In this document: positions 5,588 through 6,985 of the stretch, piece by piece
How positions within the stretch are numbered: the first letter of the stretch is position 1
How the letters are laid out: every line of letters starts with the position of its first letter
IMG/VR virus record: IMGVR_UViG_2600254977_000009
Length of the DNA: 8,984 nt
From: a virus
Lineage: Duplodnaviria; Heunggongvirae; Uroviricota; Caudoviricetes
Direction: 5' to 3' (one strand)
Made by a program: the position numbers and the translations under genes
The notes under the pieces: model-generated
The model's input: the letters and a program-made list of their open reading frames with translations, nothing else
The model's database searches: none
What the model was told of the DNA's origin: nothing

Positions 5588-6637
5588 TCAAACGATTAAA
5601 TCCTGAACTTCCCTGACTGTCTGCTCAAAACGTCCGGTCTCCAGCTCAACACCAATCGCACGACGCCCCAGTGCCATCGCCGCTTTTACCGTTGAACCCG
5701 ACCCCATGAAAAAATCCGCAACCAGATCACCAGGACGGCTACTTGCGCTGATTATCTGCTGCAGCATTTCTGCCGGTTTTTCGCACGGATGTTTCCCGGG
5801 ATAGAACTGCACCGGTTTATGCGTCCACACATCGGTATACGGCACCTGCACCGTCACGCCAAAATACCGCCGCAGATGTTTATATTCACTCAGCAGCTCC
5901 GCATACTGCCGGTTCAGTGAGGTATACGTATCCACCAGCTGGTGGTGGAGCTTTTCCAGTTCACCACGCCGATGCTTCTCTTCTGCCACCCGGGCAAACA
6001 GCGCCTGTAATTTCAGATAATCGCTTTCATTCGGTAGCTGCCACTGACTGGCACTGAACCAGTGCGACACCATGTTTTTCTTTCCTGTGGCATCTGCAAT
6101 CTGTTTTGCCGTTATCCCCAGGGCCGCGCGCGCATCACGAAAGTAAGAAATCAGCGGGGCCATCACATGCTGTTTCAGTGCACTGCCCTTCGCCGCATAC
6201 CCGGCATCTTTCGGACGATACGGCCCCTGATAATGTTCCGCGAACAGAATGCGCTCTGTGGCGGGGAAATACGCCCGCAGGCTTTCCTTGTTGCATCCGT
6301 TCCAGCGTCCGGACGGCTTCGCCCAGATAATATGGTTCAGCACACTGAAGCGTTCACGCATCATGATTTCGATATCAGATGCCAGGCGATGACCACAGAA
6401 CAGGTAAAGACTTCCGGCAGGTTTCAGCACCCGCCAGAACTGCGCCAGACACTGGTCCAGCCACTTCAGGTAATCATCGTCGCCCTTCCACTGGTTATCC
6501 CAGCCCTCAGGCTTCACTTTAAAGTACGGCGGGTCCGTGACTATCAGGTCAACAGAATTTTCGGGTAACGACCGGATAAATTCCAGGCAGTCGGCGTTGA
6601 TTAACTCACAACTGGATATTTTTACAGTATTAAGCAT
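5588..6637 (-). CDS. Orphan DNA amino-methyltransferase, beta-class motif order (DPPY then FxGxG); N6-adenine more likely than N4-cytosine
   Basis: 349-aa ORF with catalytic motif IV TDPPYF near the N-terminus (LIVTDPPYFKV) and the AdoMet-binding motif I near the C-terminus (DFFMGSGSTVKAAMALGRRAIGVE). That circularly permuted order is typical of beta-group m6A/m4C enzymes such as the CcrM/HinfI type. No restriction endonuclease partner is in the window. Confidence 0.85.
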   Translation of the reverse strand: MLNTVKISSCELINADCLEFIRSLPENSVDLIVTDPPYFKVKPEGWDNQWKGDDDYLKWLDQCLAQFWRVLKPAGSLYLFCGHRLASDIEIMMRERFSVLNHIIWAKPSGRWNGCNKESLRAYFPATERILFAEHYQGPYRPKDAGYAAKGSALKQHVMAPLISYFRDARAALGITAKQIADATGKKNMVSHWFSASQWQLPNESDYLKLQALFARVAEEKHRRGELEKLHHQLVDTYTSLNRQYAELLSEYKHLRRYFGVTVQVPYTDVWTHKPVQFYPGKHPCEKPAEMLQQIISASSRPGDLVADFFMGSGSTVKAAMALGRRAIGVELETGRFEQTVREVQDLIV

Positions 6638-6774
6638 GGATCATTAAGCCTGTCTCTGATAGGCTCATTCTGCTTTTGCGCAAAGCAGTGGGCCTGAGGT
6701 TTGCTTGTGATCCGGACGCATGAGCAGATGGCTGGTGGGTGCCCCTAACACCCACCAGCCGCCCATTTACCACA

Positions 6775-6801
6775 AATAAAAAAGCCTTCACTGCGGAAGG
6801 C
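6775..6801 (-). terminator. Intrinsic terminator overlapping the stop codon of the 65-aa ORF
   Basis: Minus strand GCCTTC-cgcagt-GAAGGC followed by TTTTTTATTTGTG. The TGA stop of the upstream ORF lies inside the hairpin. Confidence 0.55.
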
Positions 6802-6985
6802 GTCTGTAACAACCGAACTGATAGTCTGCCAGACCCGCCATAACCAGCTGAGTCAGTATTAACTGGCAGCGTTCGCGTGAAAGGTAAGTATTCTGCGCTA
6901 TCTCCCCGACTGTCGCCGGGTCGGTAACGCTTAATTCATTAAACACCACTCTGGCGGTTTCTGTCATATCCTGCTGTTTTAGCAT
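6788..6985 (-). CDS. Hypothetical 65-aa protein with a probable helix-turn-helix
   Basis: ORF MLKQQDMTETARVVFNELSVTDPATVGEIAQNTYLSRERCQLILTQLVMAGLADYQFGCYRRLPQ. AAGGA lies 6 nt upstream of the ATG. The segment TVGEIAQNTYLSRERCQLILTQL has a helix-turn-helix-like pattern by eye. It is the first ORF after tR' and immediately upstream of the methyltransferase. Confidence 0.5.
   Translation of the reverse strand: MLKQQDMTETARVVFNELSVTDPATVGEIAQNTYLSRERCQLILTQLVMAGLADYQFGCYRRLPQ

Follow-up and report, generated by a model that had tools for sequence, protein, structure and literature searches.

Organisation of the locus

The present study concerns an orphan DNA methyltransferase gene and the structured RNA that precedes it in a stretch of 8,984 nucleotides (nt) from the Caudoviricetes record IMGVR_UViG_2600254977_000009; this whole stretch is called the window hereafter, and its genes, signals and RNA elements described below lie on the minus strand. 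Their order is a DUF968 gene, RusA, the antiterminator gene Q (PF03589), an open reading frame (ORF) of 65 amino acids (aa), a 349-aa methyltransferase (PF01555) and three tRNAs, followed by two copies of the small RNA (sRNA) STnc100, DUF1737, a holin, DUF1327, a lysozyme and the Rz lysis gene. Between Q and the tRNAs, a lambda-like pR' promoter and a tR' hairpin precede the 65-aa ORF, and a terminator-like hairpin as well as a 150-nt spacer separate that ORF from the methyltransferase. We regard it as probable that the gene encodes an M.EcoGII-family enzyme in the first slot of the late operon, with an anti-restriction role, and that its translation is limited or timed by an RNA leader contained in the spacer.

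The Q gene (7210..8031), of the PF03589 type with a DnaJ-like zinc motif, was recognised by Pfam and by alignment to strain UTI89. Between its stop codon (7210) and the 65-aa ORF lies a pR'-like late promoter (7162..7204), composed of a -35 hexamer TTGATT (7204-7199), a spacer of 16 nt, a -10 hexamer TAAATT (7182-7177) extended by a TG ahead of it, a further 6 nt and AACGATGGG (7170-7162). Lambda pR' reads TTGACT-17-TAAATT-6-AACGATGGG and shares with it the -10 hexamer, the 6-nt spacing and AACGATGGG; with 8 of 12 consensus matches the promoter falls below the cut-off of 9 that was set in the promoter scan. It is followed by the intrinsic terminator tR' (7106..7127; CCCGCCGCCTGGCGGG plus T6), which was detected by terminator scan. 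Lambdoid late operons are characterized by a Q gene, a -10-like pause element in the promoter behind it and an intrinsic terminator, and all of these are present; since Q is followed by a lambda-like pR' and then by tR', the placement behind pR'/tR' given in the initial annotation is sound, with the methyltransferase as the first sizeable gene. This position is already visible in phage annotations. Lying behind Q, pR' and tR', the gene would be expected to be transcribed only with Q-dependent readthrough.

In UTI89 Q is a single coding sequence of 273 aa, whereas in the window it is split by a 2-nt deletion (TA) into ORFs of 103 aa (7718-8029) and 175 aa (7210-7737). This deletion occurred in none of the 2,444 complete E. 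coli genomes carrying the same stretch (best match 97.8%), and may be strain-specific or a sequence error.

A second hairpin (6778..6801; GCCTTC-CGCAGT-GAAGGC plus T6), also found by terminator scan, is situated between the 65-aa ORF and the methyltransferase. Its loop contains the stop codon of the ORF, and the hairpin ends 12 nt ahead of AAUGGGCG. A terminator between the two genes had been noticed before and is borne out by this hairpin, but the spacer also holds a conserved structured RNA.

The methyltransferase and its relatives

The methyltransferase (5588..6637), assigned to the N6-adenine enzymes of the M.EcoGII family, matches PF01555 (N6_N4_Mtase, E 4e-43) over residues 29-340. DPPY was located at 6524-6535 (residues 35-38) and FMGSG, an FxGxG motif, at 5696-5710 (residues 310-314); both stand in the order of the beta class, with an N-terminal DPPY, a central recognition domain and a C-terminal FxGxG. 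The solved beta-class relatives M.RsrI, CcrM and MboIIA align in two blocks on either side of the central domain. A nuclease gene was present neither in the window nor in syntenic phages, and the gene is surrounded by tRNA genes, copies of an sRNA and lysis genes, which upholds the earlier assignment as an orphan beta-class DNA methyltransferase.

The closest characterized relatives are M.EcoGII and M.EcoGI, prophage enzymes of E. coli O104:H4 C227-11 (Murray et al., 2018, PMC5778455), likewise orphan enzymes of beta-class order. M.EcoGII (PMC11551740 Table S1) has the same length of 349 aa and is identical to the window enzyme in 331 of 350 positions (~95%), whereby its sequence was machine-read from a PDF with a few likely reading errors, so that the true identity is probably slightly higher. 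The approximately 18 substitutions lie mainly in residues 148-275, which comprise the recognition domain and linker. The accession of M.EcoGII was not among the 40 cluster members listed; the methyltransferase of phage 1720a-02, which is 95% identical to the window enzyme, was named very similar to M.EcoGII (PMC5778455). M.EcoGII methylates adenine in any context in double-stranded DNA, single-stranded DNA and RNA, is prophage-borne, is not expressed in the lysogen and slows growth when expressed, and its published role is the evasion of host restriction (PMC5778455). Homologues were found to be silent in lysogens (PMC5778455; PMC4659465; PMC6602927), those in ST131 and O111 strains gave no methylation signal there, and REBASE marks homologues of ~93% similarity as 'nonspecific' by inference. 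Judged by its 95% identity, the window methyltransferase would be a non-specific 'any A' enzyme as well.

Self-protection of progeny DNA, suggested for the gene at the outset, has thus already been proposed in print for a near-identical enzyme (PMC5778455), and neither the enzyme nor its presumed anti-restriction role is new; an epigenetic role in the lysogen, which had been entertained beside it, is unlikely given the silence of the homologues. As the enzyme family is non-specific, a search for motifs by REBASE comparison or single-molecule real-time (SMRT) sequencing is expected to yield 'any A' and no motif, and the motif-hunting experiments of the initial annotation would come up empty. 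The M.EcoGII paper (PMC5778455) gives no description of the Q/pR'/tR' position, the 65-aa ORF or a leader RNA. The family is of practical weight in two respects: M.EcoGII is widely used as a chromatin and RNA footprinting reagent, and its relatives occur in thousands of prophages of E. coli, Salmonella and Klebsiella including Stx2 phages, in which the toxin genes follow immediately behind the methyltransferase cassette.

A structured RNA leader ahead of the methyltransferase

In an alignment of seven phages the 150-nt spacer was more conserved than the 65-aa ORF itself, and its conservation extended to a Morganella phage whose methyltransferase is just 62% identical. Between E. coli and Salmonella the leader is ~85% identical, while half of the third codon positions in the adjacent 65-aa ORF differ. 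No other non-coding feature of the cassette is as well conserved.

Covariation supports a three-way junction followed by a hairpin in the leader (6638..6773); the 5' flank of the leader on the minus strand reads UGUGGUAAA. In the junction the P0 5' strand UGGGC (6765-6761) pairs with GCCCA (6693-6689), forming P0b. It is accompanied by P1, a hairpin of 12 bp (6760-6749 with 6741-6730), and P2 (6728-6723 with 6705-6700), which reads UCUGCU with AGCAAA in the window and UUCGCU with AGCGAA in the consensus. The hairpin P3 (6688-6682 with 6676-6670) pairs GCUUU with AAAGC. RNAalifold on a plain MAFFT alignment had returned a partial and partly wrong structure, in which UGGGC was paired with GCCUA, and was replaced by a hand-built structure with subsequent covariance-model realignment; shuffled alignments and slid controls served for comparison. 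In the covariance-model alignment 22 of 31 pairs were changed on both sides, where shuffled alignments gave 9.9 +/- 1.3 and slid controls 3-8. A further 79 distinct phage sequences, collected independently by a pattern fixing P0b only, gave 23 of 31 covarying pairs (shuffles 13.4 +/- 1.5; slid controls 6-7), and 90% of their cells were paired compared to 29-45% in slid controls. One P2 pair, for instance, occurs there as AU (34), CG (20), UA (13) and UG (10). Both alignments had been fitted to the structure and thereby favour it, but the same covariation is seen against the slid controls and in the plain MAFFT columns. It is present in four helices.

Other reasons for the conservation of the spacer were considered. 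A hidden ORF across it (6630-6812) was rejected, the three frames being open in 0, 6 and 19 of 62 homologues. A sigma-70 promoter with TGTGAAAAT as extended -10 was rejected too, since the second base of the hexamer, a key A, varies and GGAAAT is common, and P0 pairing requires the following bases within the RNA. Finally, the recombination hotspot Chi was rejected as the main cause of P1 conservation, for in Morganellaceae it is replaced by GACUGUAAAGG and the like with the opposite arm matching. The lack of a conserved frame, this matched replacement, and G-U pairs which suit the leader helices on the sense strand only, indicate an RNA and not a DNA or coding element.

Rfam 15 holds no family for the leader: 6560-7230 gave only chance-level matches even at E <=10, and related loci gave no leader match at gathering or permissive thresholds. 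In a limited literature search a methylase-associated leader was mentioned neither in a survey of 224 motifs (PMC5737381) nor in a paper on phage small RNAs (PMC4104026). Absent from both Rfam 15 and the publications searched, the leader appears to be new.

Distribution of the leader

In 80 genome loci retrieved via the methyltransferase protein alone, the leader was found immediately before the ATG in 58 (Enterobacteriaceae, Erwiniaceae, Morganellaceae), and weaker covariance-model matches occurred in Vibrio and Gilliamella. The converse search by RNA pattern yielded 119 evaluable phage contigs, and in 104 of them a methyltransferase starts ~53 nt past the pattern. The downstream gene in the other 15 contigs encodes a Mom family protein (ten contigs; PF25680, E 7e-71), a C5 cytosine methyltransferase (three; PF00145) or a holin (two; PF16083). 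Hence the leader precedes three unrelated DNA-modification genes, namely M.EcoGII-type methyltransferases, Mom and C5 cytosine methyltransferases. The upstream gene was checked in four of these 15 loci: in three a Q-family gene lies 160-400 nt upstream, each belonging to a different Q family, and in the checked holin locus the ORF upstream of the leader had no Pfam match.

The homologous methyltransferase of Vibrio and Shewanella has a Com-like zinc-ribbon ORF (PF10122, E 3e-8) in front of it, with SOS-box-like sequences upstream. Several arrangements were observed in these more distant relatives. Two Vibrio loci (L068, L071; ~2150-2520) display a winged-helix-like ORF, a three-way-junction RNA, the Com-like ORF and the methyltransferase, and two others (L067, L081; ~2150-2520) the same without the upstream ORF, while Shewanella L083 and Vibrio L084 possess an SOS-like box, the Com-like ORF and the methyltransferase. 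A different conserved leader was seen in Vibrio, Aliivibrio and Psychromonas (L072, L074-L080, L082, L085, L086) ~150 nt before the methyltransferase start; it consists of GCCUUGAGUACCUGAGACCCA, UGGAGAGGAAGCA, a hairpin and UUCAAGGCUCU, is preceded by an SOS-box-like CTGT-N8-ACAG, and has no match in Rfam.

Predicted alternative pairing at the start codon

The minimum-energy fold of the window leader (-65.3 kcal/mol, z = -4.9) is a second, start-sequestered state with P0a, P1 and P5. In P0a AUGGGC is predicted to pair with GCUCAU (6725-6720) in place of GCCCA. P5 is formed by GGAUCA plus AAGC (6713-6703) with GCUU plus UGAUCC (6649-6638) directly ahead of the AUG; in this fold GGAUCAcAAGC pairs with GCUUaaUGAUCC, ending at the AUG and covering nt -17 to -1. 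A Shine-Dalgarno sequence is lacking at a distance of 5-10 nt from the AUG. P2 and P5 compete for one AAGC segment, and in Morganellaceae, where this segment is GGAC, the partners in both P2 and P5 are changed to match. Across homologues P5 is paired in 84-89%, compared to 26-43% in slid controls. Mom-type and C5-type leaders possess a GGUCAU/AUGACC pairing of their own, which covers the start codon itself. With regard to a riboswitch, the leader shows a conserved junction along with two predicted pairings that exclude each other, and no ligand is indicated. The downstream enzymes are not known to share a cofactor, which argues against S-adenosylmethionine or S-adenosylhomocysteine as ligand.

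Proposed mode of action

The methyltransferase occupies the first gene slot of a lambdoid late operon and would be present in mRNA only when Q allows the polymerase to read through tR' and the second hairpin. Progeny genomes would then be heavily adenine-methylated before packaging and thus resistant to many restriction enzymes in the next host. Because the enzyme harms the cell, a second control at the RNA level is proposed. The 135 nt before the start codon would fold into the three-way junction (P0b, P1, P2) followed by P3 and could refold to P0a, P1 and P5, whereupon the 3' half of P2 would pair with the last 17 nt before the AUG and limit or time translation. A shift between the two states might be brought about by a protein, a ligand or the order of co-transcriptional folding; alternatively, the leader might act as a constant damper only.

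Such control would resemble that of com-mom of phage Mu (PMC6483171; PMC3378877), in which a toxic, late, broad anti-restriction modification gene has its start region held in an RNA structure, and leaders of the window type also precede Mom-family genes in lambdoid phages. Predicted P5 would provide the start-sequestering structure, with moderate occlusion. However, neither a Com gene nor a small ORF with four cysteines is present in the window, Com-like ORFs being confined to the Vibrio and Shewanella relatives; Mu mom has a short Com-binding stem-loop instead of a ~135-nt three-way junction with two alternative pairings; and mom is transcribed under the C protein with Dam and OxyR, the window gene by Q antitermination. 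The leader is likely a translational gate comparable to that of Mu com-mom, without Com.

Further comparisons place the gene among other phage modification systems. Hia5, Hin1523 and Nma1821 are near-non-specific N6-methyladenine (m6A) enzymes as well, thought to protect phage DNA, which occupy the mom slot and are thought to be held off by Com-type control (Drozdz et al., 2012, PMC3299994), but they belong to the alpha class with reverse motif order, are unrelated in sequence and are Com-associated genes of Mu-like phages. Dam-like orphan methyltransferases (e.g., M.EcoVT2 of lambdoid/Stx phages, and those of P1 and T4) are also phage-encoded orphan adenine enzymes, but are specific for GATC. 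The annotation of the Stx-type phage 1720a-02 has a 'DNA adenine methyltransferase' ahead of Q, among the early genes, and not in the first late slot. Mu com-mom is an established case of post-transcriptional control, and FluMu hin1523 has been put forward as another; with a leader before three enzyme types and the Com cases added, such control is apparently common for broad-spectrum DNA-modification genes of phages.

Up to now the harmlessness of a genome-wide methylase before lysis was explained by transcriptional silence only. The leader would add a second, RNA-level control, seemingly modular across three unrelated anti-restriction enzymes; if true, it represents a new cis-regulatory RNA family which extends the principle of Mu com-mom to lambdoid phages, as well as a compact natural part for the tight control of toxic genes. 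A more far-reaching version, in which the leader belongs to a class of bistable RNA switches operated by a protein, a ligand or folding kinetics and forms a portable 'safety catch' for toxic modification genes in the first late slot, is put forward only tentatively and is somewhat doubtful. It would make the leader the RNA counterpart of Mu Com, opening translation in the late lytic phase and being tuned by the winged-helix module upstream.

Several observations weigh against the proposed mode of action or its parts. According to the initial annotation the enzyme is made late; its position supports this, on Q-antiterminated transcripts, but with Q frameshifted late expression of the window copy may not occur. 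The differences from M.EcoGII, itself compared from machine-read text, cluster in the target-recognition region and weaken the case for non-specificity. Two leaders precede a holin and not a modification gene. Covariation of P5 is modest in its statistics and weaker than that of the junction. The predicted occlusion of -17 to +3 is moderate, with a mean paired probability of 0.62 compared to 0.51 with a shuffled leader, even if it exceeded this control in 58 of 70 sequences, and the two states are only ~2 kcal/mol apart on average (11 kcal/mol in the window). Near-equal energies, moderate occlusion and the weaker covariation of P5 imply that the leader may be a constant damper and not a switch.

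The 65-aa ORF and other explanations

The 65-aa ORF (6788..6985) is a member of the functionally unassigned family phrog_331 and has hundreds of relatives across Enterobacterales. Its differences from homologues by codon position amount to 0/0/11, 2/2/21 and 7/5/32; being almost all at third positions, they mark the ORF as a real gene. AlphaFold2 predicts a winged helix-turn-helix with three helices and a beta-hairpin wing (pLDDT, the predicted local distance difference test, 91.8), and the model matches generic winged helices of MarR, IclR and the N-termini of O-methyltransferases (E ~1e-3). The only Pfam signal is a weak match to TrmB, and a profile search against solved structures gave chance-level matches only, so that no sequence relative with a solved structure was found. 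C-proteins have an Xre-type helix-turn-helix fold. As in restriction-modification systems with C-proteins, a small ORF of DNA-binding type adjoins the methyltransferase gene, but here it is a winged helix and an optional gene, terminators lie between the two genes and a restriction gene is lacking in the window and in syntenic phages; a C-protein identity was therefore rejected. Of the initial idea of an HTH-like controller the helix-turn-helix stands, in winged form and in a real gene, whereas 'controller-like' is unsupported, given that the fold is generic, that no restriction gene exists and that the ORF is absent from about half of the leader loci.

Upstream of the ORF lies a motif CTTGCTG-N11-AGAGTTAYNTGTRTGTCA (7008..7045), conserved with fixed spacing from Escherichia to Providencia/Proteus. 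It accompanies the 65-aa ORF in 84 of 91 loci and was seen in none of the 78 loci that lack the ORF; RNAalifold found no consensus RNA structure for it, and its match to sigma-70 is poor. The ORF, this motif and the terminal hairpin look like an inserted, moron-like optional module between tR' and the leader. Orf-64 of lambda (L208; lambda 44621-44815) holds the same slot behind pR', but was rejected as a homologue for want of similarity. In one contig (L227) the leader is broken after P1 by an AT-rich insertion just after the 65-aa ORF, and no methyltransferase lies within ~260 nt of that ORF.

The best surviving alternative, though an unlikely one, is that the 65-aa winged-helix protein is a trans-acting partner, either a Com-like activator or repressor acting on the leader RNA or on the CTTGCTG...AGAGTTA motif, or a reader of m6A in DNA. 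Among 76 loci picked by the ORF 75 carry the leader and a methyltransferase downstream, all of them close relatives; synteny is kept from Escherichia to Morganella, winged-helix-like ORFs occur in Vibrio loci, and the Com-like ORFs of Vibrio and Shewanella demonstrate that protein-assisted control exists in the enzyme family. Winged-helix domains that sense m6A are known besides (PMC11037411). The converse association is weaker, however: about half of the leader loci lack the ORF with no visible difference in the leader, Mom-type and C5-type loci never contain it, and the generic fold matches as well as the lack of a structurally solved relative speak against this partner.

Somewhat less probable still is a structured RNA which is no gate: it might serve in RNA processing or stability, or be released from the late transcript as a small RNA in its own right, with protection of the 5' end of the mRNA downstream or action in trans as possible examples. 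On sequence grounds, support for the predicted three-way junction is much stronger than for the start-pairing helix, which would suit such a role, as would the two leaders located 90 nt before a holin, where a P5-like partner lies ~50 nt from the holin start. A hairpin 12-13 nt upstream of AAUGGGCG was found in 85 of 137 distinct contexts (62%), with or without the 65-aa ORF, and suits a defined RNA end; prophage late regions are moreover rich in small RNAs (PMC4104026), and the window has its two STnc100 copies. Against these points stand the fixed distance of ~53 nt between leader and start in the 104 loci, the absence of a terminator after P3, and a complementarity to the start region that recurs, built from different sequences, before three unrelated kinds of gene. 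On this balance, a leader that limits or times translation of the methyltransferase is preferred.

Conservation of the spacer by a DNA-level function or recent mosaic exchange at a Chi hotspot or module junction is very improbable: Chi (GCTGGTGG) in the 5' arm of P1, its abundance in the window and the sharp boundaries of the cassette would agree with it, but not the compensated loss of Chi in Morganellaceae, G-U pairs on the sense strand only, covariation in four helices and a leader conserved amid saturated flanking synonymous sites. Equally remote is an orphan methyltransferase that would recognise a defined sequence, be controlled by a regulator of C-protein type and have an epigenetic or exclusion role in lysogeny, to which orphan status and the adjoining small ORF might point, in view of the ~95% identity to an enzyme shown to be non-specific (PMC5778455), the lack of homologue-attributable methylation in lysogens, the winged-helix fold, the missing restriction gene and the position behind two terminators.

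Prophage setting

Over 5200-7300 the window matches a prophage of UTI89, S88, APEC O1 and ATCC 11775 at 100% identity, and at 93-94% identity it matches the sequence that immediately precedes stx2 in many Stx2 phages. In most of the latter, homology stops at ~7127, i.e., at tR', which forms the left boundary of the shared cassette, while three tRNA genes (5289..5538; ileZ-type CAT, Arg TCG, Arg TCT) form its right end. Since the Stx2 homology begins at tR', the cassette of tR', 65-aa ORF, methyltransferase and tRNAs is exchanged as a single unit, with different Q genes ahead of it, and its mosaic boundaries are sharp. The tRNA at 5463-5538 was called tRNA-Met (CAT) by ARAGORN and is tRNA-Ile (ileZ) in RefSeq and Stx phage records; the latter reading would need lysidine modification to decode Ile.

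Chi occurs ten times in the window (e.g., at 6752-6759, within P1, at 7067-7074 and in the palindrome 5932-5945) compared to 0.35 expected from shuffles. Six of the ten sites lie on the sense strand of the late genes, and two pairs stand in inverted orientation, so that both strands carry Chi.

The DUF1737 gene (4086-4313; 5896-6114 in L001) is annotated as a truncated pseudogene in UTI89, which together with the Q frameshift suggests a decaying prophage. A run of 19 N at 2805-2823 inside the lysozyme gene shows that the window derives from a gapped or masked assembly. The two STnc100 copies (RF02076; 5023-5213 and 4536-4745, with 136 and 161 bits) are full-length and are situated between the tRNAs and the lysis genes, which is the position of stx in Stx phages, and each of them closes with a terminator-like hairpin.

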